From positions 507,842,001 to 507,906,000 of the forward strand of contig JBNRSN020000003.1 in assembly GCA_051313645.2 (NCBI GenBank): DNA of 64,000 nt, given 5' to 3'. A model generated the notes under the pieces. The model searched no databases. It was not told the DNA's origin and saw nothing but the letters and a program-made list of their open reading frames with translations. A program made the translations under genes and the position numbers. Origin of the DNA: Centroscyllium fabricii. Its lineage: Eukaryota. This document shows positions 9,557 to 60,281 of this stretch, piece after piece; the stretch's first letter is position 1, and each line of letters starts with the position of its first letter.

Positions 9557-10853
9557 TGAGCCCTTAAACCAGTGAGATTTGCATTGGAAAAATACTGTTC
9601 CCACCTCACACCAACTGATAGTGAACACCATGCTGACGGGTGAATCAAGTTTATTGAGCAGCAATGTTGAGCAGAAGCTGGAGCAACAAGCAGCAGATTT
9701 AGCTAGATTATAACATTCCATTTAACTTACTGTATCCATTTCACAATAAAGGTTCTGAATCCTTTAGTTCTCTGCAGTATTTCAAACAGCTTGGAGCATG
9801 CATTCTTGATGAAAAGCTTTTAAATGAGAAATGAAACCCATGAGGCATCTGCTAGACTTTGCCCTTACAGCGAAAAGCGAATTGAAAACAAGTCCTGTGG
9901 GTTATATCCTGCTCTTTCCATATAAATCCAAGTTATTGTTTGCTCTTTAATGTTAAGATCATCATAAGGTATCCTTAATTACCCATACTCAAAGCAGTAA
10001 ATCAACATAGGGCTTAAAGGCACAAAGACGGCCTGACTTGTCAAAGGGTCTGAACCCGAAACGTCGACTCTATATTTCTCTTCACGGATGTTGCCTGGCC
10101 TTCTGAGTTTTTCCAGCATTTTCTGTTGTTATTTCTGCCTGACTTGTTTCCTGATTCACATTTTTGTAATAGAACATTGCAACACTGTCACAATGGGTGA
10201 GAGTTTCCCCCTCCAACCAAACTTGGTGGAATGACAATACTAATAATCGATTATCTGCAGTGCTTGTATACTCACCAGGGTTGTAGATTTGTTCATTCCC
10301 CCTCACTTCCCCCATGCAATTCAATGTCAAATTCAAACTCCTTATTTGCATACCAAGCTACAGAGACCAATAGCTTCCCTTAAGAAATTGCTCAGAATCC
10401 ATTTAGAATTTGTTAAAAAATTATTTCATTATATAATGTGGAGAGTCTTCTCATTTGAAATTGGACAGATCTTTGATCTGTTACAGACTTGTCAGTCAGT
10501 GCTATAGTTTGGACTAAGACCATGCCTCATTCCAAAGAATATTAATCACAGCGAGTCTCGAGGCCTTCCCTCCAGTGATTTTTGACTTGCTTGTTCTCAA
10601 AACCCATCTGATGCCGATGCTTATGGCTCTGGTTGTAATTCGCATAGTTCCAGTGCTCAACTCTAATGTTGAGTATCTGCTATTCTAGTGTGTGAATAGT
10701 GCTTTGAATTCCTCTTCAAATCCAGTATGACTCTTCTGAAAAGCTTCAACATTATCCAACATGTCATAGAAACATAGAAAACATAGAAAATAGGTGCAGG
10801 AGTAGACCATTCGGTCCGTCGAGCCTGCACCGCCATTCAATACGTTCATGGCT

Positions 10854-11935
10854 GAACACAAGAACACAAGAAATAGGAGCAGGAGTAGGCCAATCGGCCC
10901 CCCGAGCCCGCCCCCTCACCCATCAAGATCATTGCTGATCCTACCCTAACCGTCATACCACTATCACCCTTCTCCCACCCAAAGAACCGTGTGATCTCCT
11001 GGGAGAGGCGAAAAACCGGATAAAAACCCAGGTCCAATTTGGGGAAAAAATCCGGGAAATTCCTCTCCGACCCCAATCCAGGCGATTGAAACTTGTCCAG
11101 GAGATCACTCAGGTCTTACTATACTAACCATAACTCAGGCCCACTTCCCTGCCCGCTCCCCGTAACCCCTAATTCCCTTGTCTGCTAAAAAACAGTCTAT
11201 TTCGGTTTTAAATTTATTTAATGTTCCCGCTTCCACAGCTCCCTGAGGCAGTGAATTCCATAGATTAACCACCCTCTGGGTGAAGAAGTTTCTCCTCATC
11301 TCAGTTTTAAAAGAGCCCCCCCTTATTCTAAGACTATGCCCCCTAGTTCTAGTCTCCCCGATCATTGGAAACATCCTTGGCGCATCCACCCGATCAAGGC
11401 CCCTCACGATCTTATACGTTTCAATAAGATCGCCTCTCATTCTTCTGAACTCTAAAGAGTAGAGTCCCAACCTACTTAACCTTTCCTCATATGTCAATCC
11501 CCTCATCGCTGGAATTAACCGTGTAAACCTTCTCTGCACTGCCTCCAGGGCAAGTACATCCTTTCTTAAGTATGGACACCAAAACTGCACACAGTATTCC
11601 AAATGCGGTCTCACCAATACTGTGTACAGCTGCAGCAAGACCTCCCTGCTTTTATACTCTATCCCCCTAGCAATAAAGGCTAAGACTCCATTGGCCTTCC
11701 TAATCACTTGCTGCACCTGCATACTAACTTTTTGTGATTCATGCACTAATACCCCCAGGTCCCTTTGCGTTGTATTACCACGCAGCTCCTCCCCATTTAG
11801 AAAATAACTTGCTCTATGATTTTTTTTTCCAAAATGTATAACTTCACATTTATCAGTATTAAATTTCATCTGCCAAATTGCTGCCCAATCGCCTAGCTTA
11901 TCTATGTCCTTTTGCAGGCTTTTTCTGTCCTCCAA
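10854..11935 (-). mobile_element. Young 5'-truncated CR1 LINE with an extended structured 3'UTR; a separate CR1 tail abuts at 10764-10853
   Basis: Intact 266-aa ORF2 C-terminus (VRPHLEYCVQFW...WNSLP); stop at 11135; (TTCTTGTG)n tail. Confidence 0.92.
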
Positions 11936-13551
11936 TTCTTTATAAAGTTCCCATGGAAGGCTATCAAGAAAACCTCACCAAACTAAAGGTTAAACCCTTT
12001 ATTAGCACCTTGGAACTGACCAGGAAAAGTTGTAGCAGTTCATTTGTCAATATTGTGCTGCCAACAGAATATTTAGGAGATTAGATTCTCTTGGAAAATA
12101 CATTTGTTTCAGGAACTCAGCAGATTATTCTGAGCTATTAACTCATCATCATGAAATACTCGTACCTCATGCAGAGTATGTGCATAAAATAAGTTGAGCA
12201 AAGAAGTAGCTGCCCAATTTTGCATAAAGGGACAAATTCGTTTCCCGTATAATCTGATGGATACAGAGTTATACGCCAGAGCCAATTTTGAGGCGAATAG
12301 AAATCCTGCTAAGGGAGTAAAGCATCATGTTTATGGAACAAGTTGCTTGATGTACTCTGTGAAGTAGGGCACATTTTTAGTTTTCACTTCCTTTTTTTGA
12401 GGCTGAAAGAACCATCACATCTATTTGTCGCTTTGAAGATGTGGGCACTTGCTGTTTCTGTTACTATTGTGTCATCCCCTCTTTTGTGGAATGGTACTCT
12501 AACTTATAGTCAAATCATTATTTCTTGGCTCAAATTTCAAGTGTGGGTATCAGCAGAACACTAGTTGTCCAGAAGGTCCTTGGATGGTCCAAGCAAGCCC
12601 TCCTGAGTTAAAAGGTTCAGCTTGCTGCTCTAGCACTCGCTTGTATCCTTTCCAAGAGCTGCCCTTGTATATGTTGTTGAAGTATCATTACCTTATTAGA
12701 ACGGTTTGAAGAAAGCGATTGTATCTGCTGTTCTCGCAGCTCAGTGTTTTTGTCATTTTTGTATTGTTGGTGTCCTTTGAGTGTGTGTGAAACCTGAGCT
12801 GTTAAAAGAAAGATTTTAAAAATTGAAGATCTTCCAGACACAACCACATGCACAATCCTCCCCCACTCCATTGCTCATTATTTAAAAAATCTAATAGGAC
12901 TTCATATACATCTCACAAGGAGGCATGTGACTAGTTTACATTTTTTCAATTATATGAATGAATGACCAACTCCAAACCCAAGTGCATTTAAAAGCCGCCT
13001 TTGTGCAACCAGAAAAAAAGTGAGAAATATGCTTTGAATTATATTGTAAATTAGATCATCATTAAATTACTTGCAAATAGATTAAAAAGTATCAAGGAAA
13101 ACGGCATAAAGGATTTCTTGCTTTGCTTTGATCTATTAAGATGTTTTGCCTTTAGCTGTAATTGCAAATCACGTTTCTGTTTAGTTAAACCAATTCGGTT
13201 TCAAACACACACAAGCAACAAAGGGGTTTACAGTATTAAACTAAAATTTAAGTATTAACTGTTCTGATTTGAACTGTGCTGATATTAAAACTGTACACTT
13301 ACTGCATGAAACTTTTGAATCTGCCTTTTTTTAAACTGTATTTCCCTTTAATTGTTCCCCATTTATCCTTTCCTCTGCATACCTTTGATACCATTTTCCA
13401 TTAAACATTTCTGTTTTCTTCCATCCTGTTTCTGTGTCCAATTTACCCTTTGCTTTCCTAACTGTTATAAAAGGCAGACGGTGCCGGTGGCTAAGCCTGC
13501 ATGTGGCTCCCTCCTGTCGTGCTGGCATGTGATGGTGGCACTGGTGTGTTC

Positions 13552-15546: not shown

Positions 15547-16862
15547 TTTGAACTGGCCATTAGGAGTTACCAACTGATGATTGTTCCTTCTGTTTACATT
15601 TCTTTGCTCACCTGGAAATACCTGGTCTTTGCTTTATGTTATTGCACAGCCGCATGGCCGAGAGCAGGAACCCACAAGCTGCAGTGAACCACTCGGTTTT
15701 GCCACTTAAGTAGATGTCACCATGGGTCCGTAGAAGAGCTTTCCAATATTAATTTCTCTGAAAGTAAAGAAAAAGCATGAAATGTACATACCTATAGTTA
15801 GTCATACTTTTCCCAAAGCAAACCGTAGGAAATGGCTGTGCAGCTACTCTCCTGTATACTGTGGTTGACAATCAATTCACTTCTCAAATTCCTGTTTGGC
15901 ATCATCAGTGCACCATGTAGCCAAAGTTTTAAGAAATATTTATGCAAAGATCAATAAGAATGTTTAATTGCTTTAAAAATCTATGCAATGTTTGGCATTT
16001 TGAGCTCATGCTTGATAATGGCAATGTGGACTTGTTCACAGTGCAGCGGTGCTTCATAACTATTTTGGCATTGCATGACAAATAGAAAATAAACAGAAGT
16101 GTTTTACTTGTCTTTGAAGTGGCATTCACTGTTAATAGTGAGTTTGCGTAATTATTTTAAAATAGTTAACTCCAGTTTCTGTTTAATCTCTAATTATAAT
16201 TTTTATTAAAGCTGCATAGTTGCCATGGATTCTGTTCAGGATGGAAACTCCCGATTGCCGTTCAATATATCAAACATTTTCATACAAAATGTGACTGATT
16301 CTGCCACTTTTAAATAGTTGTAGATATGGAGTTTAAAGAGAGTGATCTTCAAATACAGGGCTCTTTTGAACATTATAGCATTTAAACTCTTCAGTATTCA
16401 CCATTGACCAATTAGTGAGGTTTCAGGAAATAGTAATGGGATAATTAGGGACTTCAGGCTCCGAGCTGCGAAGAGGTCCTAAATAAACTTATCTTCACGA
16501 GAGAAAAGAGGCTGGAGTGGACATATCCAAATTTTTGAAATGCTGAAAGGAATGAATAATGTAAATGCAAGCAGATTATTTTAATTTAAACTGTGAATGT
16601 AGACTAGAAGAGTATAAAAATGACCAGCCCAAATAAATCTTGAAATTCAAAGGATTTTCCCCCCAACTGTGTTACATATAGTTGAATTAGACTTCGCACA
16701 AAGCAGTTAATATTGTGTCAATTAACACACTTTTTAAAAAGCTGGGTGAACACCTGATTTGGAGCCAGCTTGAGGATTATAAAAAAGATTATTGTGGAGT
16801 TTAGCTTGAATTACCTTTGGCGGGAGGAGACGAGGGGAAAATGTACAGTATTTTAAGAGACA

Positions 16863-17249
16863 GGGCGGCATGGTGGTTAGCACTGTTGCTTCATCGCACT
16901 GGAGAGCCGGGTTCAAATTCAGCCTCTGGTACTATCTGTGTGGAGTTTGCACATTCTCCCCGTGTCTGCGTGGGTTTCCTCCGGGTGCTCCGGTTTCCTC
17001 CCACAGTCCAAAGATGTGCGGGTTAGGTTGATTGGCCAGGATAAATTGACCCTTAGTGTTAGGGGGATTAAATATGTGGGGTTACGGGGATAGGGTGGGA
17101 TGTGTGTCGGTGCAGGCTCGATAGGGATGTGGGGAGAGGGCAGGGGTGGGGTTCTGGGTTTGGGTGATCAGCCATGATCGCATTAAATGGCGGAGCAGGC
17201 TCGAAGGGCCGAATGGCCTACTCCTGCTCCTATCTTCTATGTTTCTATG
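16863..17249 (+). mobile_element. HE1-type V-SINE (tRNA head, V-domain, CR1/HER1 tail)
   Basis: B-box ggttcaaat; V-domain tgtgtggagtttgcacattctccccgtgtctgcgtgggtttcctccgggtgctccggtttcctccc; closely similar copy at 59891. Confidence 0.9.
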
Positions 17250-17738
17250 GGTTCGGTGGAGCACTTGATGGAGCAGATTGTACCTGGTGTGTGCAAGGAA
17301 CAGTTTGAATCTACCGAGCAACTTTTCCTTCTCCGTATTTCCTTGTGTTTGTAACTAAACGGAAAAGCTTGTAGTTGACTCGGTCTGTCGTTGTCATGAA
17401 TACAGACAACATATCAATTTGTTTGTACAGTATTCAGGAGTTTCAATTTTCTACACGAAACCTTGATGATCCATCCTTTAATTACTATGAACCGTTGGCC
17501 ACAGTGGAAATTTTATTAGATGTCATTTTACAGCACAAGCAACGGCAAAGACACAATGTCTCAACATTTACTTTTGTTTTCCCCATCCCGTCTGAAAGCA
17601 GTGATTGTCACTGGGATGCAGTTCCACTTTGTCCAAGTGACCTTTCGTCATCCACGCTCCTGGATAGTGTCACCAAACTATTATACCATGGAAGGCATCA
17701 CAGCCAAGCCTGATTCTTTCCTCGCCGAATGTCCACAT

Positions 17739-18054
17739 TGTGACCGAAATAACGACCTCGTGGACGAGTAGTTAGAAGGGTGAAACAATACGGCTTTTAT
17801 TAACTAAATGGTGGGACATGCACCAGCTAGTCGACCGTCCCCAGGTATGGCTGGGGGATGGGAGACGGCCACTTATATACCTCCTCCTGGGAGGGAGGAG
17901 TCGCGGGCGGAGCCAGCCTGGGCATGTCCAGGTAATCGCATAACAGATAATGTACAACATGGCATTAGGTACGATTACATAGATACAAAACGGGGTGAGT
18001 ATATACAATAGGAAACAGTGGGAAACAGTGGTTTATCACATTCACCCCTTCTTT
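17739..18054 (-). repeat. Gypsy 3' LTR (302 bp, 17739-18040) plus polypurine tract
   Basis: Direct repeat of 22137-22426; minus-strand AAAGAAGGGGTGAA (18054-18041) abuts the LTR. Confidence 0.92.
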
Positions 18055-18107
18055 AAAACAAAAGTCCGGCGGGGTGAATGCAACAGTTCTTTTATTTATT
18101 TATTTAT

Positions 18108-21100
18108 TCATAAATTAAGTCGCTCCGGCGGCCTGGTGATCCTTGTTGAGCGTCGCACCGCTGGTGGTGTCCGCGGTCGTGGAGTGGCCGGCCGAGTCGG
18201 TTGTAGCGATGGTGCTGATGCTGGTTGGCGAGCGGTGATCGTCGGTTGGTTTCTGGGTGGTGGTGCCCTTATACTGACAGTAGGAGGCGCGCTCTCTACC
18301 TCGTCGTCTGACTCTAGGGGGCGTGCACTGTGGAGCCATGCTGGAGGCCATGCCGTGCTGCTCGCAGGTGCCGGGTGAATGTACCGGGGTGCTGGATCCT
18401 CGTGCCGGGGAGCGTACCTTGGCGCCGGTGGCTCGGGTGGCGTGACTGGCCGCGGTGGCCCGGGTGGGGTGGCTGGCCGTCTTGGGTGCGCGGGCTGCTG
18501 GGCGGGGCGTCTTGGGTGCGCGGGCTGCTGGGCGGGGCTGGGTTTGGGGACTCCCCCTGGCGCCAGGCCCTTGATGGACACGGTGTCCTCCCTCCCGTCG
18601 GGGTACGCCACGTAGGCGTACTGGGGATTGGCGTGCAGGAGGTGGACCCGTTCGACCAGGGGATCTGCCTTGTGGCCCCTCACGTGCTTCCGTAGTAGGA
18701 CCGGTCCCGGGGATAGTAGCCACAATGGTAGCGAGGTCCCGGAAGCCGACTTCCTGGGGAAGGCAAAAAGTCGTTCGTGAGGGGTGGCATTAGTGGCCGT
18801 ACACAGGAGGGACCGGATAGAGTGGAGTGCTTCAGGGAGGACGTCCTGCCATCGGGAGACTGGGAGGCTTTTAGACCGTAGGGCTAACAGGATGGCCTTC
18901 CAGACAGTGGCATTCTCCCTCTCTACCTGCCCGTTCCCCCGGGAGTTGTAGCTGGTAGTCCTGCTAGTCGCGATGCCTTTGGCTAGCAGAAACTGACGCA
19001 GCTCGTCACTCATAAAGGATGCTCCCCGGTCACTATGAATATAGTTGGGATAGCCGAACAGGGAGAAGATGCTGTGGAGGGCTTTGATGACAGTGGCGGA
19101 GGTCATGGCAGGGGATGGCAAAGGGGAAGCGGGAGTACTCATCAATCACATTGAGGAAGTACACATTCCTGTTGGAGGAGGGAAGGGGCCCTTTGAAATC
19201 GACGCTGAGTCGTTCAAAGGGGCGAGTGGCCTTAATCAAATGCGCCCGGTCTGGCCGATAGAAGTGCGGCTTGCACTCCGCGCAGACCTGGCAATTGCTG
19301 GTCAGGGTCTTGACCTCCTCGATGGAGATGGGAAGGTTGCGGGACTTCACGAAGTGAACCAACCTGGTGACCCCCGGGTGGCAGAGGTCATTGTGTAAGG
19401 TTTGGAGGCGGTCTGTCTGTGCGCTGGCACAGGTACCGCGGGATAGGGTGTCTGGGGGTTCGTTAAATTTCCCGGGCCGGTACAAGATATCATCATTAAA
19501 CGCGGAGAGTTCAATTCTCTACCTTAATATCTTGTCGTTCTTGATCGTACCCCGCTCTTTGTTGTTGAACATAAAAGTGACTGATCGTTGGTCAGTCAAC
19601 AGGGTAAAACGCTTGCCGGCCAGGTAGTGCTTCCAGTGACGCACTGCTTCAACGATGGCCTGGGCCTCCTTCTCGACTGAGGAGTGTCGGGTCTCGGGGC
19701 CCTGGAGGGTACGTGAGAAGAAGGCCACGGGTCTGCCCGCCTGGTTAAGGGTGGCGGCCAGGGCAAAGTCCGATGCATCGCTCTCTACTTGAAATGGGAC
19801 GGACTCGTCCACAGCGTGCATCGTGGCTTTTGCGATGTCATTCTTAATGCCGCAGAACGCCGCGCGGGCATCTGCGGACAGGGGGAATGAGGTGGATTTA
19901 AGCAGTGGGCGAGCTTTGTCCGCGTAATTGGGGACCCACTGGGCATAATATGCAAAGAAACCCAAGCACCGTTTAAGGGCCTTGGGGGAGTGGGGGAGGG
20001 GAAGCTCCATGAGGGGGCGCATGCGGTCCGGGTCGGGACCGATGACCCCATTCTCCACAACACTGCCGAGGATGGCCAGGCGGGTGGTACTGAACACACA
20101 TTTTTCAGTGTTATAGGTCAGATTAAGTGTTTTGGCGGTGTGGAGAAATTTCTGGAGGTTGGCGTCATGGTCCTGCTGATCGTGGCCGCAGATGGTCACG
20201 TTATCGAGGTACGGGAAAGTGGCTCGCAGCCCGTACTGATCGACCATTCGGTCCATCTCTCTCTGGAAGACCGAGACCCCATTCGTGACGCCAAACGGGA
20301 CCCTAAGGAAGTGATAGAGGCGACCGTCAGCCTCGAAGGCTGTATAGAGACGGTCCTCTGGGCGGATGGGAAGCTGGTGATAAGCAGACTTCAGATCTAT
20401 GGTGGAGAACACCCTGAACTGGTTGATCTGATTCACCATGTCCGCTATCCGGGGAAGGGGGTAAGCGTCTAACTGTGTGAACCGGTTTATGGTCTGACTG
20501 TAGTCAACGACCATCCGGTTCTTCGCTCCGGTTTTCACCACCACTACCTGCGCCCTCCAGGGGCTATTACTGGCCTCGATAACCCCCTCCTTCAGGAGGC
20601 GCTGCACCTCGGACTTAATAAAGTCCATGTCCCCAGCACTGTAGCGCCTACTCTTGGTGGCGACGGGCTTGCAGTCTGGGGTGAGGTTGGCAAAGAGCGA
20701 GGGAGGGGCGACCTTAAGGGTCGAGAGGCCACAGGTAGCACGCCGGGGGTGCTGCGCTGAGCACCGGTTGCTGACTGCGAGCGAGGGAAGGGGCCCACCG
20801 TACGCCATGGTAACGCTTTGGAGGTGGCACTGGAAGTCCAGACTCAATAGTAATGGGGCGCAGAGCTGCGGCAGCACGAAAAAGCTACAATTATCAAAAT
20901 GCACGCCCTGCACAGTTAGGGCCACTGCGCAACGCCCAGAGACGTCCGCCGATTCAGATTTAGAAGCCATCGAAATTCTTTGGCTCGCTGGCATAACCTT
21001 AAGGGAGAGGCGCTCTACTGTCTCAGGATGAACAAAACTCACCGTGCTCCCACTGTCGAAAAGGCACACCACGTCTTGTCCGTTCACTCCCACCAGCATC

Positions 21101-22113
21101 ATCGATTTCCCAAGCGATTGGGTCTTGTTCTGGTCGAGAGTTACTGATGCTAAAATTGGGTCAGCCGATTCCTCATGATCCGCAGAGTAGTCCTCCGGGG
21201 CCGGTCCCCAAGATGGCTGCCGCCATGCGGTGTACTGCGGAGGGGGTGGCTGGGTCCAATATGGCGACTGCTGCCACGCGGGGTGCTGAGTGGGGGATGG
21301 TTGAGTCCAATATGGCTGCTCCCATGTTCCACACGCGGCGCTGCCCGGTTTCGGTTTAGGGGCTGATGTGGTCGCCTTACAGACTTTCGCATAATGTCCC
21401 TTTTTACCACATTTTGAGCAGGCCGCTTCTCTTGCCGGGCAGCTACGTCTCGGATGCTGAGACTGCCCGCAGAAGTAACATTTAGCCGTCTTTGCGTGAG
21501 CGGCTGCGATCATTTCTTCCGCCGGCCGTTGCGCCGGCGTTGTCCAAGATGGCGGGGCTGGGCCCGCATAGTTGCCGGAATACGACGAGAGGTTTAGCGA
21601 GGCCACGTCCAGCACGTGTTCCAGATCCGTAGTTGCCTGCAGGTCAAGGCCGTTCTGCTCTAACAGCCTCTGTCTTATATAGTCCGACCTGAGGCCTGTG
21701 ACATATGCGTCTCTGATTAGACTGTCCACATGGATCGGGGCCGTTAGCGCTGTGCAGTCACAGGCCCGTGAAAGCACTCTCAGCGCTCTTAAAAATTCCA
21801 CGCTGGACTCACCGGGTTGCTGCTTCCTGGTGGCTAGGAGATGTCTGGCGTGGACGATATTGGGTGCCTGGTTGTACTCCACCTTGAGGATCCTGATAGC
21901 ATCCAGAAACGATGATGCGTCCACGATCATGGAGTACACCTGAGGGCCCACCCGGGCGTTGAGGAGCCATCGTTTGACCTCTTCGGTCCTAACGACCGCT
22001 GCGTTCGCTCTCAGGTACGCATCGAAAACACTATACCAGTGTGTAAATGTGTTTGATGCACCTGGTGTCCGGGGGTCCAGTTCAAACGTCGCTGGCTTGA
22101 GCATCGCTTCCAT
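18108..22113 (-). pseudogene. Gypsy gag-pol polyprotein with two disabling lesions
   Basis: ATG at 22113; CYFCGQSQHPRRSC and CSKCGKKGHYAKVC; protease LFDSGS; RT LDAYPLPRI...YLDNV; RNase H SDAS; premature TAG at 19521-19519 (KILR[W]RIEL); integrase HHCC and VDF/SDRG/VERE; frameshift near 19107 (FAIPC^MTSAT). Confidence 0.93.
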
Positions 22114-22136
22114 CTTCAAAATTTAGTTAATAAAAT

Positions 22137-22426
22137 TGTGACCGAAATAACGACCTCGTGGACGAGTAGTTAGAAGGGTGAAACAATACGGCTTTTATTA
22201 ACTAAATGGTGGGACATGCACCAGCTAGTCGACCGTCCCCAGGTATGGCTGGGGGATGGGAGACGGCCACTTATATACCTCCTCCTGGGAGGGAGGAATC
22301 GCGGGCGGAGCCAGCCTGGGCATGTCCAGGTTATTGCATAACCGGTTATGTACAACATGGCATTAGGTACGATTACATAGATAGAAAACGGGGTGAGTAT
22401 ATACAATAGGAAACTGGTTTATCACA
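22137..22426 (-). promoter_or_regulatory. Gypsy 5' LTR (290 bp) with TATA box and poly(A) signal
   Basis: On the minus strand, TATATAA at 22277-22271 and AATAAA at 22199-22194. Confidence 0.85.
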
Positions 22427-28384: not shown

Positions 28385-29605
28385 TGAAGGGCTTCCCTGA
28401 TTGAATTTGTTAAGGTACTGCATAAGAGATTTATGGCTCAGATTATGGTGCGTGGAATTAAAGGGAATGTGGCCACATGGATAAAGAGATGGTTGGAGGG
28501 CAGAAAGTGAACAGTCAGGTTAAATGGAAGTTTCTCAGACTGGAAAGATGCGGAGAGTGGCATTCCACTGGGGTCTGCGTTGAGGCTGCTCTACCATATA
28601 CAGAATACTTGGACTTGGGAGTTAAGGGAACACTGTCAAAATTGCCAATGACACCAGATTGGGGGTATGTCATATTGAGATGAAGATCGTGAAAGACTGC
28701 AGGTCGACGTATGGTAGCAGGATGGGCAGGTAGGTGGTAAATGAAGTTCAAGGTAGAAAATGTGAAATTCATTTTGGAAGTAAGAATAGGGTAAGGAAAT
28801 GTACCAATGGGTGAGTAGAGGGACCTTGATATAGAAACTAGGAGCAGGAGTAGGCCATTCAGCCCTTCGAGCCTGCTCTACCATTCAATGAGATCATGGC
28901 TGATCATCCAAACCCAGTACCCTGTCCCTGCCTTGTCCCCATATCCCTATCGAGCCTGTACTGACACATATCCCACCCTATCCCCGTATGCAGTTACATA
29001 GGTAAATAAGGGATGGCAGCATGATAAGGCCACTAAAGTGAAAATGGAATCATTGAGTTGTATGTAGAGCTATAGAATACAAATACACGGAGGTAATGTT
29101 GAACTTTCCAAGATCTTAGTTCGGCTGGTGTTGGAATATTGTTTGCAGTTTTGGACACCCCGTTATAGGAAAACAATAAAGGCAATAGAAAAGGCGCAGC
29201 GTAGATTCACTAGGATGTTACCAGGGACGAGCAGTTACAGATATTAAGAGAGACTTAAGAAATTAGTGCTTTTTCACAAGAGCTGAGAAGGTTACTTAAT
29301 AAAGGTTTCACAATTATGAAGGGCTGTGATAATGTTGTTTCTATGGTCAGTGAGACAGTAACAGGAGGGCACACACAAAAACTTACTTACACAAGAGGGC
29401 GGTGAGAATGTGGAATTCTGCACCACAAATCATTGTTGAAGTAGAGTCTATAAATTCTTTTAAAAGGAAATTAGCTAGTGGCTTGAAAAGGAGGAATATT
29501 TAAAAGCTATGGTGAGCGAGCAGGAAAATGGGATTAGACTGCGTAGCTTTTGTGGAGAAAAACAATGACACAAACTTGATGGGTCATATTGCTTGTTTCT
29601 GTGAT
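28385..29605 (+). mobile_element. Decayed CR1 LINE with a younger SINE/CR1 tail inserted antisense at about 28830-28987
   Basis: Decayed LEYCLQFW/RFTRM-like sequence; the insert matches the HE1 3' part. Confidence 0.75.
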
Positions 29606-33967: not shown

Positions 33968-34828
33968 CATAAGAACATAAGAAATAGGAGCAGGAGTAGG
34001 CCATTTAGCCCCTCGAGCCTGCTCCGCCATTTAATGAGATCATGGCTGACCTGGTTTTGGGCTCGGCTCCATTTCCTTGGCCGCACCCCATAACCCTTCA
34101 CTCGCTTATTGTTCAAAAATCTGTCTATCTCCACCTTAAGTATATTCAATGACCCAGCCTCCACAGCTCTCTCGGGCAGAGAATTCCACAGATTTACGAC
34201 CCTCTGAGAGAAGAAATTCATTCTCATCTCCGTTTTAAATGGGCGACCCCTTATTCTGAAACTATGCCCCCTAGTTCTAGATTCCCCCATGAGTGGAAAC
34301 ATCTCTTTATTTACCTTGTCGATCCCCCTCAGTATTTTATATGTTTAAATAAGATCACCTCTCATTCTTCTAAACTCCAATGAGTATAGGCCCAACCCGC
34401 TCAATCTTTCTTCATAAGTCAACCCCTTCATCTCGGGAATCAACCTCGTGAACCTTCTCTGAACTGCTGCCAATGCAAGTATATCCCTCCTTAAATAAGG
34501 AGACCAAAACTGTATGCAGTACTCTAGGTGTGGTCTCACCAATACCCAGTACAGTTGTAGCAATACTTCCCTACTTTTGTACGCCAACCCCCTTGCAATA
34601 AAGGCCAACATTCCATTTGCCTTCCTCCTTACTTGCTGTACCTGCATGCTAACTTTTTGTTTTTCATGCACAGGGAGGTCTCTCTGTACCACAGCATTTT
34701 GTAATCTTTCTCAATAATCATTTGCTTTTTTTATTTTTCTTACCAAAGTGGATAACCTCACACTTGCCCACATTATACTCCATCTGCCAAATGTTCACCC
34801 ACTCACTAAGCCTGTCTATATCCCTTTG
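33968..34828 (-). mobile_element. CR1 (HER1-like) 3' fragment
   Basis: ORFs 34345..34692 and 33955..34302; (TTCTTATG)n tail. Confidence 0.9.
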
Positions 34829-37685: not shown

Positions 37686-37943
37686 GTTCCCCTAGTTTTA
37701 CAGTTTATAAAGAATGAATGTTACACCAAACTTTATGGCAGATTTTTTAGTTTTGCTCGAGCACTGTGATCTAGGTCAGCGCACTTTCATTCCTCCTTAA
37801 ATCTGCTGAGAAATCCAAGGACAGTTTTTTATCTTGTGCTGGAGCAGCACACTTTACCTTTGTATTGTCTTTAATCCATGCTGTTTTCATTTGCCTGCTT
37901 GACTATGTTTTTGTTTTCCTTTCTCCCCACTTAAATTCTGAAG

Positions 37944-40229
37944 TCTTTAACCAGTGAGCTAGCATCAGCCAAATCTCAGTATGAGCAAATAGCAGAGGAT
38001 ATAAGCGCTCTAAAGGGGGATAAAGAACAGATGATCCAGCAAGGAGATGCACTAAAATTCGAGAAAGAGTCCATATTCTCTGAACTGTCAGAGCTGAAGT
38101 TACAGTATATTTCCCTGCAGAAAGAGCAGCAAGTGTTAGAATCAAAGAATGAGGCGCTCCAGTTGGAAAAGACAGCATTTCTAACAGAAAGGCAAGATTT
38201 TGAGTGTAATCAGCAACAACTTGGTCTGGAAAAGGATGCTTTAGCCACTGAAAAAGTCCAGTTTCTCCTGGAAATCAAACAATTGCAGCAGCTACTTGAT
38301 ACGTTGTCAAAAGAAAACGACGCCCTCCGAGCCTCGCAATCCAATCTAAGCAAACTACTGGGAGAAGTTCAGATAAACAGCAAAGTAACAGAATGTGAAC
38401 GAGCTCAGCTGCTTCAAGAAAAGGAAGAGTTGTTATTGGCCCACAGGAAAGTAATTACAGAAAGAGAGGAACTTACAAAAGAAAAAGACAAGATTACCCA
38501 AAACTTCCACAAGTCATGTGAAGAGACAGCAATTGCTCTTGAGAAGCTGGTGAAAGAAAGGGACGATCTGATGGTGGAAAAAGACTCTCTCTCACTGAAA
38601 TACTCAAAGCTTGAAGCTCAGGATGAACACTTAGCAAAGGAGAAAATTCTGTTGAAATCGGCAAGTGATGAGCTTGCATCTGAAAACGAAACTCTTGAGA
38701 AAGAGAAGGGAGATCTTGGTTCACGTTTGCAGAAGACCGTCTTTGAAAAGCAAACCATCATTATTGAAAGGGATCAACTACAGAATAGTCATGATCTTTT
38801 GAAGAAAGAACTAGAAAAATATATGAAGGAAAATGCAGAACTTCAGGCCTCAAAATCCAGCCAGTCAAAACTCTTGGATGAGATTACGAATAGCAGGGAG
38901 GTAACAGACTCTGAACGTGCCCAGCTGCTCCAAGAGAAGGAAGAGCTAATTACATCTCAGAGAAAACTAACTGTAGAAAGGGACGAACTTGCAAAGCAAA
39001 CAATGGAGTTGACTGCAAAGCTGCAGAAAACAATTGAGGAGGCAGCCATCATTGAGAAAAAGCTGAGTGAAGAAAAAGATGCTCTAAAAACAGAGAAAGG
39101 CTCACTTTGGCTGAGGCAGTCACAGCTCGAAACCCAGTGTGAATCTTTACAAAAGGAGAAGGAGACCTTGGAATCAAAAAGCAATGTGCAGTTGTCAGAA
39201 AATGAATCTCTCTCAGACGAGATAGTCGCATTTAAATCAAAGCAACAGCAGGTCGTCTCTGAAAATACAGCCATAGCTGCAGAACGGGATCAGCTCCTTG
39301 GCAACGTTGAGTTCTTAAAGAAACAACTTGATAAATTGGCCAAAGAAAATGGAGAGCTGCAGGTGTCTCAGTCAAGTTTGTCTACACTTTTGGATGAGAT
39401 TCAGAACCGCAAAAAACTTGTGGATTCAGAGAGACTTTGCTTGTTGCAGGAGAAGCGGAGACTGGCAGCTGAACTTCAGGAACAGTGCTCTGAAACAGAA
39501 AAGTTTATGACACAGCGGGTGGAATTAGAGGAAAAATATAATAAATTGAATGAACAGGTGAGAGCACTTGAAAACCAACTAATACAAGAAAGGGATGCAG
39601 CAAAAATGGAAAAAGAGACTCTCATTATGGCTCATTCAAAACTTGAAAGTAATTTCCATCTATTGCAGAAAGAAATGGGTGTTCTTAAAGCTAAAAATGA
39701 TGAACTACTTTCAGAAAAAAACTTGCTAGTAAAAGAGAAAGAGGTCATTGATGCTGAACAAAAGAAGTCTGCTAGTGAGAAAGAAGACCTCGTAGCTGAG
39801 AAGAATTGGCTGAGGTCCAGTGTTGAAGAGCTGAAGAAGGAGTTTGATATATTAACCAAAGAAAAAGTAGAGCTCCAGGCTTCACAGTCAAAACGTTCGA
39901 GACTCTTGGATGAACTTCGCAGTCGCCAGGAGGTGTCCGACTTGGATCGGGTAAAGCTATCGGAAGAGAAAGATGATTTACTGGCAACAGTACAGAAACT
40001 CCATACAGAAAAAGAAGAGCTTGTTCGAGGGAAGGACGGGCTAGCGGAATCCCTCTGCAGGTTGCGTGAAGAGGCTGCTCTTTCTGCTCAAGACAAGGGA
40101 GAAACTGTAGCAAAGCTCCAGCAACTGGTATGTGAGAAGGAGCTTTTGCTGAAACATGAAGAGGACCTTGCTTCCAAATTAAAAGATCTTCAGGTTCATC
40201 AGAATATTACTTTATCAGAGAAGATTGAG
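37944..40229 (+). CDS. CLIP1: CLIP1 giant, probably alternatively spliced, coiled-coil exon, SLTSELASAK...NITLSEKIE (762 aa)
   Basis: Pyrimidine tract then tgaag|TCT; open frame through ORF 38031..40334; donor GAG|gtacca at 40229 (an alternative phase-0 donor at 40193 is less likely). Phase 0-0, so it is skippable in frame. The start resembles the SLTYLLTSAK exon recalled from long mammalian CLIP1 models. Confidence 0.85.
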
Positions 40230-42072
40230 GTACCAAATATAAGCATTCAGATAAATCCAGAAAGTTATGGGCACTTTTGTTCACTAATGAGTGCACTAAC
40301 CGGTTTGGTTTTGAACTTTTTTGATCACTATTAACCGTGTTTGTCAACTATGCTTTCGATTACATTAATTCTGGGAAATGATTTTTGTGGCTTGTCACTC
40401 CAATAAATGGTGTGGGCATTTTGCACGGGTAATTATAAAAGTCCTGTTTCTGATTTTTCCTGAATTAATTTGCATTATATGAAGTTACAATTCTTGTTTC
40501 TAGGGTGTGGATAAAATGAAGGTTTAAGTATGCTTTAAAACAGAAATGGTTTAGATTTTTCTGTTCATTTTAGTTCTGTTCGAGTTTACCAAAAGGACTA
40601 TTTTACATGTTCTCAAATTTAACAGATTGGTTATCCTCAACAAATCCTTTTCTTGGTTATTTAAAAAAAAAATCATCCTGATTTTCTTGTCACAATTTTG
40701 TGTTTTAAACAAAATGCAATTATTTTTAAAATCTTACAACTTCACACTTATCCACAGTGAGACTGCCAACAGCTAATTTCAACAAAGGCAAAACCGATTT
40801 GAAGCCATTAGGCAGAAATGTACGAGTGTAAACTACTGAGTGAGTGAATGCATTGTACTCAACCATACAGACCAGGAAGCTCCCAGGTTTGATCATGATC
40901 TGTGCGGAGTTCGCTGATTGTGGTTGGTTTGCTACTACAACTGTTCGAAGTGGCTCTAGAATAGGGAAGAAAAGAAAGGATTACATTTAGCGAGTGTCAA
41001 AGAAATGTCTCAATATGTTTCACTCACAAAGGATCACTGTACTTCGAAGTAGTGAATTGTTTTTTCTTTACTTCTCTGTGAAACACCTTGAAACACTTTT
41101 ATATTTAAGATGTTTTATAATTGCAAGTTGTTGTAATCGGAGTAGTTAGTGATGGGTGGAGTATTCACCAGGGTTTCCACTCCTGTTCACTATTCAGTGA
41201 CACCTGGTGGACAGTGGATGCACATGAGAAAGATGCGAGGTCAGGATCACTATCAGCTGTGATTTCTTCCACGCGCCTGTCTGTGGTTGAATAGATGTGG
41301 ACACTCACCATCTCCGCTCACACATGAAGAATGAGCACTTGATAAAACACCAGAGGGGTGCCAGTGCCCATGGAAGCATACTATGCACTAAAGAAAACTG
41401 GTGGGCAAGGGATGTGAGGTTGTACATTTAAGCTAGTCCTTTGAAATTTAATAGCGAAATCTACTAATAAAAATTCCAAATTGTGCTTTGTATTTAAAAC
41501 AAGCTAAATGAATACCGAGAATTGGCAACTAAGTAATATGTGGCATACAATGTTTTAATTATCCTCAAAACCTAATTTAATGTCTGATTCTTCAAAATCA
41601 TTTTCTCTTTGTAATTCACAAGGTGAGTTGGCTTGTTGGCAGTTTCTAATGTCTGAATTTTAGCTTTGGTTTTCCCTATGTTAATTATTATTATTTTTTA
41701 AATCAGTGGCATGTTTGGCATGAAACTGGATTTGACACATTGGAAACGTATGATTTTACTGCATATTCTTTCTGCAGAATTTTAAAGAGTATTTAATGGT
41801 AATGGTGACTAACATTCGACATGATTCTGTGGAATGTGAAAATACAGGTTCAGCTCAGAAAAATATGGTTAAAATTTCTAAATAAAACCAGCATGATGAA
41901 TTTCTAACATCTATTTTTCAAAAGTCAGGATTACATCACGTGCCAGACATCAATTAACTTAATCTGTCCACATGCAAGAAGTGCTTTAAGTAACTTTCAG
42001 AATTTTCCTGTAACCTGTTTCAGTGAAACTTTAAACATTTATTTCACACTATGAAATGTTTTGTATTTTTAG

Positions 42073-44116: not shown

Positions 44117-45062
44117 GGCCGCGAAGTTGGCACCTTAGCGCCGGCCCATTAGCGCTGACAATCGGCGCTAATGGGCCAGCGCCGGCCTAGTGCCAAAATT
44201 AGCACCGGGCGCTAAATTGGCATAGTGATTAGCGCCGGCGCTAAATGTTAGCGCTCACTAATTAGCTATCAGCAATCCTCGTGGAAATGCGTGTGCAACG
44301 CCTACCCGCCGGGCTGAGCCAGAAATGTGCTTTTGCGCCAGTCCACCCCGCCCCGCGCTGCCAGCGCCAGCTTCGGCAAGTGCTGCAGTGGGTTTGAGTG
44401 GCCGCTACAGCGCTGCTAAAAGGGCCACCCTCCCTCTTCAGTCCGAGCGGCCAGCTGATGGGGAGGAGTCGGCCTGAATGGCTAATTGATGAGAGAGCGG
44501 GGAGGGGGGCCGCCCGACCCCCCTCCCTGCTCTCTGATCAGTTGCCGATCGGGGGCCGTCCGACCCCCCCCCCCCCCCCCCCTCCCCACTCTCTGATCAG
44601 TTGCCAATCGGGGGCCGCCCTACCCCCCTCTCTGATCAGTTGCCGATCCAGCAACTGATCAGAGAGCGGGAAGGCGGGTCAGACGGCCCCCGATCGGCAG
44701 CTGAACAGAGTGCAAGGAGGGGGGAGGGAGATTGGCAGCTGGTCAGAATGCGAGGAGGGGGGGGGGTGAGGGAGGCCCGTGGTCGGCAACTGATCGGAGT
44801 GCGGGAGGAAAAGATGCTGCTCTGCTTCCCCTTTAAGACCTAATCGGCTGCAGAGGTCATGAGGAAGCAAGCAGTTAGTGAGGGAGCGCTGCGCCCGGGA
44901 ATGGCAATTAGCGGCAAGATATTGGCTGCCTGGAAGCCATGCAAGAGGTAAATTAGCGCCAAAATCTGCAACGACGGTGCTAATGCCAATATCGGCCACT
45001 TCGGCGCTAATTTTTAGCGTAGCGCCAATTTTAGCGCCGATGCGCTCACGAATTTCCCGCCC
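44117..45062. mobile_element. GC-rich non-autonomous DNA element (possibly PIF/Harbinger-like) with subterminal TTAGCGCC arrays
   Basis: Imperfect TIRs ggccgcgaagtt / aatttcccgccc; sharp GC boundary against AT-rich flanks; TSD not clean. Confidence 0.55.
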
Positions 45063-45831: not shown

Positions 45832-46072
45832 AGTCCAAAGATGTGCGGGTTAGGTTTATTGGCCAGGATAAATTGACCCTTAGTGTTAGGGGGATTGAAT
45901 ATGTGGGGTTACGGGGATAGGGTGGGATATGGCTCGATAGGGATCGAGGGATATGGGGAGAGGGCAGGGGCGGGGTACTGGGTTTGGATGATCAGCCATG
46001 ATCTCATTGAATGGCGGAGCAGGCTCAAAGGGACGAATGGCCTACTCCTGCTCCTAGTTTCTATGTTTCCAT
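45832..46072 (+). mobile_element. 5'-truncated HE1-type SINE
   Basis: Matches about 17005-17249. Confidence 0.88.
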
Positions 46073-48318
46073 GATTGTCCTTCATAAATTTCAGCTTGGA
46101 GTTCTCGCAGTACAAATGCCCCAGGAAATTTTGGCGTGGCATAAGTAATGCAAACATTTTCTGGAAAATCTGCATTGGGTTTAGCTTCTAATTAACTTCA
46201 GTTGAACATATTATTTCATTAGTCAAAAGTCCATGCGCACTTAATTAGAAACTACATTAATAGACGGTTAACAAGAGTCTATGGAACCTATTCAAGTACA
46301 AACTGTAATTAAGCAGTCGACTGCATACTTATGCTTGGATCACTCGGCTGGGTTTAGATGCTGTCTCCTGTTTTCCCGAAGTGACAGGTAGCAAGTGCTT
46401 TTCCCCCTCTTTTATAGTAATCTGGTTGCCCATATATGGTCACATTTGTGACTATTACAATTTACTTAAGTCGTTGAGTTTTAGCATGTGACCCATAGGT
46501 CATTGAGTTTAACTTTGTTGGGCATCCGACAACCCATAGGCCATTGAACAGATTGCTGAACACGCAGGACCAAAGGGGCCTCATCCTTATCAGAACCTGT
46601 TCCATTGTCTAAATTGATCATCCTTTTAGACAGTGGTCAATTATATTTCATTACACGTCAGCCAAAATACCTTCCTACGCAGCTGGTAAACTTTCTGTAT
46701 GGTTTGCTCGAGATGTTTTCTCGGCTGGAACAACCTGCAATAGAATAGTCTATGAATATCTAAACCATTATTTTCTAAGAAATGTTAAAGTAAAATAAAG
46801 GTTAAAATGAGTTGTGCGCTTTAGAACTGGTGTTGAACGATGCTTTAAAAAGTGAAATGAGAGGAAAAATAGCTGGATTTGCATTTTTGATAGTAAAATA
46901 TTTTTGTTAATTATGTGATTGTTTCTGGAAACAATCTTGTATATGTTATGTAATCTGGTTTGCTGGAAATTTCAGATTTAAACGTCACAGCTTGATAATC
47001 CTGTAAATTGTGCATCATTCCTGGATACAGATCAGTAATGTAATTTACTTCAGTTGTTGTGTTGCTGTCGTTCATGGCTTCTGACCTGATTAAAGCTGAC
47101 AGCACTGTCAGGCAATTTTCTGGTGTTTAAAGATGAAGTATGTGTTATCAGGGATAAATATTCCAATTTGCAGAATGCAGCACAAGAAAGGCAGATTTGT
47201 TTTGTTAAAAGTACTTGCATTTTATTTATGACTGGATTTATTTTTCCTGTCTTGCCCAAATGCCAGAAAGGCTAACTCTACGTAAGGTACATGGATAAGA
47301 GATTTGGTGGAAGAGACATAAATCTTTCAAACAATATCATCTTTTTGTGATGTTTTCAGGAACTCCTGTTTTTAATGAGTTCTTAGAAATAAAGGTGAGA
47401 ATCTGTGAGGCCATAAAGCTTTACATGATGCCACTTATGCATAAAATCTGATTTGTTGGGAGTGTTACAGCTAAAGATTCAGCAGCCTGTGGTAGTCGGA
47501 CAGCTGGTTGGAGGCTGTACATCAGAATCGTTGTGTAATGCAACTGAGCCCTGGTGCATATGACAGATGATGGCACTGAGCATTCCGGTGCATTATATCG
47601 CACGTATAATTGGATCATACCTTCAGAATAATTTTTCAAGGAAGAAAATATCTTAATATTAACAGTAATGGATATCAGAGCTTTACAGGATAATTATTCC
47701 CCTTATTACTTCTCTGTGCAGCTTAAGGTATGATTTTTAAGGAACAGGTAATGTTCAGTTTTCTTTATAAATAACCTAGTGAGCAGTAATGGTATATTCT
47801 GGTAATCAGTAATGTGTGTTGTACAATGAATGATTTTACAGCAATTAAGATAAATTGTGTAGGCTTCTGTGTTTCTCAGAAGCGTTTTATTGGGTTTCTT
47901 ACATTTGAAGGAGTCACTATCTTTACTCAGGTAGGCTGCAGTTATAATTTTATTCAAAGATGGGGAAACATCTGGAAAGCGGCAGTGTTTGGTTTTGGTA
48001 CTAAATCACAAAGCAGTGATGGAACTTGCATTCAAAGGGAGGCTTTAATTTTTTTGTATAAGGGATGGTGGTAAGGACAGTTCTGTTTTTCTTTACTGAT
48101 AGACAAGCTTTTGCAGTGCTTGAGGCACAGCAGGATGGATTCTCTCTTCATAATAGCCATTTTCTTTTCTGCTAATGTGTTGGAGCAAAAGCTGCCTTTA
48201 ATATTAGAATACAGTCAGAGATGTCAGTTATTTGTTTTATTTTCTATACCGTTCTGGAAGATTCTAAAAATATTTTATTTGACTGCAGAAACAAAATACA
48301 TTTTTTTTCCTTTGTCAG

Positions 48319-48935: not shown

Positions 48936-49249
48936 CGAATCATAGAATCCCTACAGTGCAGATAGAGGCCATTTCGGCCCATCGAGCCTGCACCGACACA
49001 TATCCCACCCTATCCCCGTAACCCCACATATTTAATCCCCCTAACACTGAGGGTCAATTTATCATGTCCAATCAACCTAACCCGCACATCTTTGGACTGT
49101 GGGAGGAAACCGGAGCACCCGGAGGAAGCCCACGCAGACACTGGGAGAATGTGCAAACTCCACACAGATAATCACCCGAGGCCGGATTTGAACCCTGGAC
49201 CCTGGCGCGGTGAGGCAACAGTGCTAACCACTATGCCACCGTGCCGCCC
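48936..49249 (-). mobile_element. HE1-type V-SINE with a different LINE-derived tail
   Basis: Reverse complement of the tRNA head and V-domain; tail ctgcactgtagggattctatgattc. Confidence 0.88.
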
Positions 49250-59890: not shown

Positions 59891-60281
59891 AGGGCGGCAC
59901 GGTGGCATTGTGGTTAGCACTGTTGCCTTACAGCACTAGAGACCCGGGTTCAAATCCAGCCTCGGGTACTATCTGTGTGGAGTTTGCACATTCTCCCCGT
60001 GTCTGCGTGGGTTTCCTCCGGGTGCTCCGGTTTCCTCCCACAGTCCAAAGATGTGCGGGTTAGGTTGATTGGCCATGATAAATTGACCCTGAGTGTTAGG
60101 GGGATTGAATATGTGGGGTGACGGGGATAGGGTGGGATATGTGTCAGTGCAGGCTCAATCGGGATTGAGGGATATGGGGACAGGGTACTGAGTTTGGATG
60201 ATCAGCCATGATCTCATTGAATGGCGGAGCAGGCTCGAAGGGCCGAATGGCCTACTCCTGCTCCTATCTTCTATGTTTCTA
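59891..60281 (+). mobile_element. Full-length HE1-type V-SINE
   Basis: A-box tggcattgtgg, B-box ggttcaaatcc, V-domain, CR1 tail. Confidence 0.9.

Follow-up and report, generated by a model that had tools for sequence, protein, structure and literature searches.

The locus raises the question of why a single CR1 LINE copy, within the window (the whole 64-kb stretch of Centroscyllium fabricii DNA analyzed here), carries a U-rich, strongly self-complementary cassette in its 3′UTR, and whether this cassette could act as an ENE and hold a poly(A) tail, as an initial annotation had proposed. The element itself is a CR1 LINE, in that a CR1-type ORF2 is followed by a 3′UTR ending in a hairpin and a short repeat. 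The best named relatives of the ORF2 product, among 2,296 relatives, were proteins from skates, rays, sawfish, and sharks (62-70%). The copy is 5′-truncated, its resemblance to other copies in the window beginning near 11915-11960, and an RVT_1 domain was found on a related CR1 copy in the window. The terminal unit ends ~135 nt past the cassette, and loose contig ends from one sequencing run (X13) fall at 10854 with mixed flanks, marking a common element end.

We compared this copy to the three other CR1 ends in the window, the terminal units of which start at 34049, 51668, and 51397. The distance from ORF2 to the terminal unit was ~12-20 nt in these three versus ~200 nt here, and the cassette was absent both from them and from the SINE-type tails in the 64-kb window. 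The modular insert that had been claimed (roughly 190 nt) was upheld as an extra segment of ~185 nt that the three other ends lack, but its status as a gain was not shown, and loss from the other CR1 lineages fits the distribution equally well. V-SINE-like repeats (e.g., 16861-17249) had only the terminal unit in common with the cassette-bearing CR1. Because cassette-free CR1 copies and V-SINE-like tails exist in the window, the cassette is dispensable for recognition by the reverse transcriptase. With regard to possible sources of poly(A), the reported lack of a downstream A-tract was borne out, with no A-run of six or more in the 1.8 kb downstream. No poly(A) signal was present inside the element, and the nearest ATTAAA and AATAAA were 1,039 and 1,335 nt downstream, respectively, both in host DNA. 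An A9 run was located inside ORF2 at 11828.

Several V-SINE-like copies with a tRNA-like head, a central domain, and a CR1 tail were present in the window, with 86-93% identity; we take V-SINE to be the appropriate name for repeats of this composition. The HE1 V-SINE/HER1 pair of sharks is listed in PMC3747384. CR1 3′ ends were also arranged head to tail at two places in the window (10940-10765 and 51858-51327), such that new copies may insert at the microsatellite ends of earlier CR1 copies.

The cassette sequence quoted in the initial annotation was located at 11108-10991 on the minus strand (118 nt), within the CR1 3′UTR. RNAfold returned -50.5 kcal/mol for this strand (z -3.61, with 0/200 shuffles as good) and a predicted three-way junction with an 11-bp closing stem, a side hairpin, stems of 7, 6, and 4 bp, and two nested U-rich internal loops (Table 1). 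The fold described earlier was thus recovered in its closing stem, side hairpin, 7- and 4-bp stems, and both loops, but the middle stem comprises 6 bp, not 5. When the whole 380-nt 3′UTR was folded, the cassette structure was unchanged and the loop U residues were unpaired at ~0.9. An ENE-shaped descriptor, composed after the sequence had been seen, had two matches on both strands of the 64 kb, both nested in the cassette, and none in 30 shuffled windows. In the fish copy each loop looks like a nested repeat of the other along both strands, and the second loop probably arose by local duplication of both loop strands. Rfam 15 gave no family match in the window, and 10700-11300 together with four homologues (below) gave only sub-threshold chance scores; no ribozyme family in Rfam matched the cassette.

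Table 1. Features of the cassette, the CR1 element that carries it, and related repeats in the window.
Feature	Position in window	Strand	Basis or remark
P1 closing stem, 5′ strand	11108-11098	-	RNAfold; pairs with 11001-10991
P2 side hairpin, 19 nt	11087-11069	-	Conserved GAUCGCC...UGGGGUC arms, invariant U.G pair
P3 lower stem (7 bp; partner strand 11008-11002), 5′ strand	11068-11062	-	Two G-C pairs beneath loop
Lower U-rich loop, 5′ strand, AAUUUC (AAUUUU in homologues)	11061-11056	-	RNAfold and homologues
P4 middle stem (6 bp; partner strand 11021-11016), 5′ strand	11055-11050	-	RNAfold
Upper U-rich loop, 5′ strand, five U and C	11049-11044	-	RNAfold
P5 apical hairpin, 4 bp, 9-nt loop	11043-11027	-	RNAfold; pairs slightly better on plus strand
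Upper U-rich loop, 3′ strand, five U	11026-11022	-	RNAfold
Lower U-rich loop, 3′ strand, five U and CG (homologues: six U and G)	11015-11009	-	RNAfold and homologues
3′ strands of P3 (11008-11002) and P1 (11001-10991)	11008-10991	-	RNAfold
CR1 ORF2 3′ end, 279-aa open frame with stop codon	11974-11135	-	Open reading frame and similarity
Linker, stop codon to cassette, variable	11134-11109	-	ORF2 frame ends 26 nt before cassette
CR1 terminal unit, hairpin region and microsatellite	10940-10856	-	Common to other CR1 copies; no AAUAAA
Second adjoining CR1/SINE-type terminal unit	10858-10765	-	Repeat comparison
V-SINE-like copies	16861-17249, 59898-60281, 48978-49249, 45832-46073, 28831-28988		Repeat comparison

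Homologues were sought with a pattern derived from the window sequence, the degenerate positions of which were chosen partly on prior expectation. The tight form of the pattern matched eight loci in metagenome contigs, seven in genome contigs, and none in viral contigs, and four of these 15 loci (L129, L130, L132, and L135, all in metagenome contigs) were homologues of the cassette. L131, L133, L134, and L136 failed the pairing test and were used as controls, the seven genome-contig loci were chance matches, and 120 prokaryote-labelled loci matched by a loose pattern were likewise attributed to chance and reused as controls. A pattern for the side hairpin recovered 62 + 1 loci, with a U-run after the hairpin in 0/63. 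Searches with the CR1 protein retrieved a single CR1 contig, without the cassette, from genome contigs, and none from viral contigs; that contig belongs to a bacterial genome record, and its amniote-type CR1 3′ end (L001:285-1140) is probably vertebrate contamination.

The four homologous loci had mutual identities of 77-95% over 250-990 nt. One of them (L129) also contained an amniote-type CR1 end, best matched by proteins labelled sea turtle (68-73%), and since this end is sea-turtle-like and the loci are alike, we term all four sauropsid-type. They may come from birds, and turtle CR1 elements may, as the initial annotation suggested, carry a similar motif. OVEX1, considered as a source of the homologous loci, was not explanatory, based on the available part of PMC2717909. 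The homologue modules were not behind a CR1 ORF2. In L130 (635-1100, minus strand), L132, and L129 a G+C-rich, multi-copy vertebrate repeat was observed in which the module lies in tandem, decaying copies of ~175 nt.

Base pairing was retained to a far greater extent than sequence. In the lower-loop region 12/12 pairs were kept in L129, L130, and L135 and 11/12 in L132, six of them by two-sided change, in accordance with the covariation of stems that had been anticipated. Specifically, all seven P3 pairs were kept in 4/4 homologues, three via two-sided change, while the first five pairs of P4, with three two-sided changes, were kept in three of the four and 4/5 pairs in L132. The stem strands themselves were identical to the window at only 12/24 positions (13 in L132). 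For nine pairs the search pattern placed no two-sided constraint; the homologues kept 8-9 of these, 11 other pattern matches kept 1-6, and in 0/120 of the loose-pattern chance loci were all nine Watson-Crick. The lengths of the loop strands (6 and 7 nt) were fixed and 11/13 of their letters identical, mostly as demanded by the search pattern. The U-tracts were kept in the homologues as well (AAUUUU, and six U plus G), as foreseen in the initial annotation, though the pattern largely demanded this. That annotation had treated the side hairpin as incidental, which proved incorrect: P2 belongs to the conserved core, with 14/19 nt identical to all four sauropsid-type loci (three letters being set by the pattern) and a bulged G common to fish and sauropsid-type copies.

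A covariance model built from the four homologues only, with the window copy excluded, placed its top window match at 10991-11108, exact to the base (38.5 bits, E 6e-8), and gave at most 16.7 bits to other pattern-sharing loci. Its second window match, 44447-44559 (E 0.005), was rejected as a G+C-rich hairpin without U-loops. The surrounding 44447-44700 is G+C-rich, with nested inverted and direct repeats. In the model-fitted alignment of eight copies, which leans towards structure, two-sided changes were found in 16/42 pairs versus 4.9 in shuffled alignments and 1-4 with partners slid; in the same alignment they affected 5/14 model pairs of P1. The two G-C pairs beneath the lower loop were present in 8/8 aligned copies. 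A MAFFT alignment (A1) had set the homologue loop against the upper fish loop and was replaced by pair counts from anchors and from the model-fitted alignment. Because the four homologues are 96% alike, this evidence amounts to two independent lineages. Based on these comparisons, the pairing has been maintained by selection between cartilaginous-fish CR1 and sauropsid-type DNA.

The homologues contained a single U-rich loop beneath a long G-C stem. Because 0/4 of the sauropsid-type homologues have a second loop, the "double" arrangement is probably not the conserved form, so that the designation of a double ENE fits only in part, covering the two loops of the fish copy and not the homologues; the conserved unit appears to be one U-rich loop together with the side hairpin. 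Second tandem copies in L129, L130, and L132, which lay outside the pattern matches, had lost the AA and the side hairpin and retained P3, the stems, and longer U-tracts. As the tandem second copies keep the U-loop arm and drop the side hairpin, this arm is what persists. No A-run was found near the module in 3/4 homologous loci. A suggested likeness to amphibian CR1 was recovered as a trace: in the available part of PMC4316615 (supplement file 2), the Xenopus consensus CR1-2_XT holds, between ORF2 and its terminal unit, 14 nt equal to the homologue 3′ arm, covering the end of the lower-loop 3′ strand and P3. Other occurrences of this 14-nt motif in the supplement were unrelated. According to that portion of the paper, the ORF2/3′UTR boundary was cut from the alignment as ambiguous, and because the authors removed it, the rest of the Xenopus module is invisible.

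We also examined related fish copies in 24 sequencing runs, 20 of which, from nine studies, contained the stretch or part of it; contigs of four (X1, X10, X13, and the RNA run X16) were compared. Contigs of X1, X10, and X13 covered the cassette, including both loops, and since one X10 contig (180 nt, three differences, one gap) spans the ORF2 stop to the cassette end, the link between ORF2 and cassette is not unique to the window copy. The linker at 11109-11134 had several substitutions and deletions in one diverged X10 contig. Moreover, among 27 pieces listed of 43,330, the eight from X1 all matched 10985-11115 only, with 11-19 differences, and four of the eight contigs continued into unmatched sequence; diverged fish versions therefore cease to resemble the window at the closing stem. 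At least seven positions inside the cassette differed among the 40 differences listed of 102, the others of which could include U-tract changes. Of the seven, four were unpaired, two were A-to-G opposite U, and one was at 11053. The sole loop change among the listed differences adds a U (C-to-U at 11044 in the upper loop, at 84% of contig depth in X1 and 93% in X13). The G-to-A change at 11053, at 38-67% of contig depth, would break a P4 pair unless its partner, which is not among the 40 differences listed, also changed. The first G of P2 is an A in the window copy, and at 11087 a G made up 97-100% of contig depth in X1, X10, and X13. The three contigs of X16 did not cover 10907-11137, and say nothing on expression.

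Which strand carries the structure is not decided by stability. The plus strand of the cassette folded equally well (-50.2 kcal/mol, z -5.28), and strand energies were near equal in 5/5 sequences (differences ≤2.4 kcal/mol), so folding energy is no guide; G.U counts in the minimum-energy folds did not separate the strands either. The apical stem P5 did pair slightly better on the plus strand, as had been remarked. However, the concern that the G.U pattern might favor the opposite strand was not substantiated: the U.G pair in P2 was kept in 8/8 aligned copies and two fish-copy variants were A-to-G facing U. These features, together with the U-rich strand being the sense strand of the element, modestly favor the minus strand. 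The central proposal of an ENE-shaped, conserved module on the element strand of a CR1 3′UTR was sustained, with homologues outside this fish.

With respect to function, we favor, with moderate confidence, a model in which the cassette is a cis-acting ENE of one CR1 lineage, gripping a poly(A) tail acquired downstream of it so that CR1 RNA is stabilized. An intronless CR1 transcript would read past its microsatellite end and be polyadenylated at a flanking signal. The poly(A) tail would then turn back and enter the loop, where it would pair with one U-strand and receive Hoogsteen contacts from the other, with perhaps 3-4 U.A-U triples in the lower loop, ~5 in the upper, and A-minor contacts on the G-C pairs beside the loops. 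Deadenylation of the clamped tail would be slowed, leaving more RNA for retrotransposition. Consistent with this, both loops have the U-tracts on both strands and the G-C pairs beside the loop that characterize ENEs, one strand running GG-(A)U-tract-CC and the opposite strand GG-five U-two nt-CC. According to section 5 of PMC12501189, the part available here, triplex formation by Evade requires both U-tracts and flanking G-C pairs.

The main weaknesses of the ENE reading are that no poly(A) source is encoded, that the U-tract on the lower 5′ strand is short, and that the side hairpin is conserved, for which an ENE offers no explanation. CR1 3′UTRs have been described as without poly(A) tails (PMC2734521), and the 5′ strand of the lower loop, with AA and three U in the window copy and four U in the homologues, is short for an ENE. 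Also counting against it, the identity of the lower loop to the homologues is largely fixed by the search pattern, G-to-A at 11053 would break a P4 pair unless compensated, and the cassette is missing from many CR1 copies and SINE tails. Finally, neither the three-way junction nor the invariant side hairpin features in the ENE descriptions consulted, and both are suggestive of protein binding or a tertiary contact.

The 11-mer that the initial annotation attributes to the 3′ strand of KSHV PAN is present in the window at 11028-11018. Like the single-domain ENE of the PAN type, as described in the portions of PMC7583470 (section 3.4) and PMC13541005 available to us, the cassette has a U-rich internal loop between short stems with G-C pairs at the loop and a 2-nt extension on the 3′ strand, and it has no genomic A-tract, so that the third strand would be the poly(A) tail. 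Unlike that ENE, the cassette is LINE-borne, forms part of a three-way junction that includes a conserved side hairpin, has a lower 5′ strand of AA and 3-4 U, and has no poly(A) signal right behind it. With double ENEs (TWIFB1; Evade), going by reviews and PMC12501189, it has in common two U-rich loops with a short duplex between them, an upper loop that is more canonical than the irregular lower one, and a location toward the 3′ end of the transposon RNA. In contrast, the known hosts of double ENEs, in the same sources, are plants, fungi, a slime mould, and a stickleback retrovirus, in DNA and LTR elements, and the double form of the cassette is confined to the fish copy. Moreover, the lower domain of the TWIFB1 type is described with a bulge of 3 or 4 nt and a break in its A-minor stem (available sections of PMC7583470), whereas the cassette has a 2-nt CG and a continuous 7-bp stem, an interrupted stem appearing only if AA pairs with UU.

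Similarities to the MALAT1/NEAT1 triple helix (PMC6633196; PMC12609000 supplement) include a purine-rich lower-stem strand ending in AGG and paired to CCU, an upper stem opening with CC/GG, and a G-containing bulge before the lower stem, and the MALAT1 ENE layout as printed in PMC6633196 is the junction layout of both cassette loops. The closest likeness to MALAT1/NEAT1 was found in the second copies of the L129 and L132 tandems. The cassette loop is, however, much shorter and not interrupted by C/G, and neither an encoded A-rich tract nor a tRNA-like RNase P substrate is present downstream. The CR1 terminal hairpin and microsatellite, as covered in the available parts of PMC4316615 and PMC8665684, also form structured RNA in the CR1 3′UTR, and these parts describe no other structure there. 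That hairpin occupies the last 85 nt of all copies and is shared with SINEs, whereas the cassette is restricted to some lineages and located further upstream, within the part of the alignment that the former study cut as ambiguous.

Three other accounts must be weighed against the ENE. The cassette could be a protein-binding RNP element for export, localization, or the loading of ORF1p, ORF2p, or a host factor, the U-loop and side hairpin forming a recognition surface without any triplex, and this we regard as rather unlikely. LINE RNAs lack introns and require signals for export and packaging, and the features kept between fish and sauropsid-type copies, namely 14/19 letters of the side hairpin with its bulged G and U.G pair, the junction, and the fixed loop lengths (6 and 7 nt), are those that such a surface would comprise. 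Yet the tandem second copies drop precisely the side hairpin while keeping the U-loop arm, the fish lineage gained another U-rich loop, likewise with the ENE layout, and the cassette-free CR1 and V-SINE-like elements of the window show that reverse-transcriptase recognition does not need it.

An element that has no poly(A) signal, and genomic CR1 ends without poly(A), might instead point to a triplex with an internal A-run, such as the A9 in ORF2, or to 3′-end formation (a pause, a cleavage, or an exonuclease stop) on a CR1 RNA without a poly(A) tail, for which a compact junction of three helices so close to the 3′ end would be suited. We consider this quite improbable, given that there is no MALAT1-like A-rich tract or tRNA-like processing signal downstream and no Rfam ribozyme family, that three of the four homologous loci have no nearby A-run, and that the terminal unit required by the reverse transcriptase is downstream and must remain on the RNA. 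The near-equal folding of both strands in all five sequences would be expected of a mere passenger, be it an old inverted repeat that the LINE takes along when it is copied or a fold whose role lies on the other strand or in DNA, and the one RNA run (X16) had no cassette transcript, although its three contigs are uninformative on expression. Such a passenger would not be expected to change six of 12 pairs on both sides while leaving every pair intact in three homologues, to lose its similarity to diverged fish contigs right at the closing stem, or to have an invariant U.G and two A-to-G changes opposite U that fit the U-rich strand only; we therefore hold this account to be very improbable.

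Beyond the ENE of one CR1 lineage, a more ambitious scenario can be drawn, which we judge unlikely: an ancient mobile ENE, of at least jawed-vertebrate age and spread by CR1, that left the LINE and was amplified in tandem in sauropsid repeats, acquired a second loop in cartilaginous fish, could supply host transcripts with a poly(A) clamp, and is possibly kin to MALAT1/NEAT1, the stem junctions of which it resembles. In many non-mammalian vertebrates CR1 dominates the repeat content, and if the cassette is a working ENE, CR1 copies could be among the most numerous ENEs in animal genomes. It would also follow that CR1 RNA acquires a poly(A) tail and shields it, even though the genomic copies have none, and the way in which stringent LINEs terminate and protect their RNA could then be tested directly. 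Lineages of CR1 with and without the cassette in one genome offer a natural comparison, and even if the module is not an ENE, it would represent a deeply conserved RNA structure in a CR1 region that alignments discard.

The ENEs listed in the available part of Brown 2020 (PMC7583470) come from dsDNA viruses, dicistroviruses, MALAT1/MEN-beta, plant, fungal, and slime-mould transposons, and stickleback retroviruses, and the review passages accessible to us name viruses, MALAT1/NEAT1, such transposons, and one fish retrovirus, but no LINE; neither "CR1" nor "vertebrate" occurs in the accessible part of a 2026 review (PMC13541005). No ENE in a LINE was found in the literature searched, with the earlier survey supplements (Tycowski 2012, 2016; Torabi 2021) being places where a CR1 element could be listed. 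The cassette motif was absent from the portion of the Galbraith 2021 supplement available as text (32,272 characters of a 3.9-MB archive), and searches of paper main texts for its strings gave unrelated matches only.

The window contained two further features of note. An LTR retrotransposon at 17737-22414 has 280-bp repeats that are 97.5% identical and encodes protease, RT, RNase H, and integrase domains in separate frames. Additionally, a 799-aa stop-free frame (37935-40334, plus strand) has a strong A skew and no Pfam match, and is possibly a large host exon.
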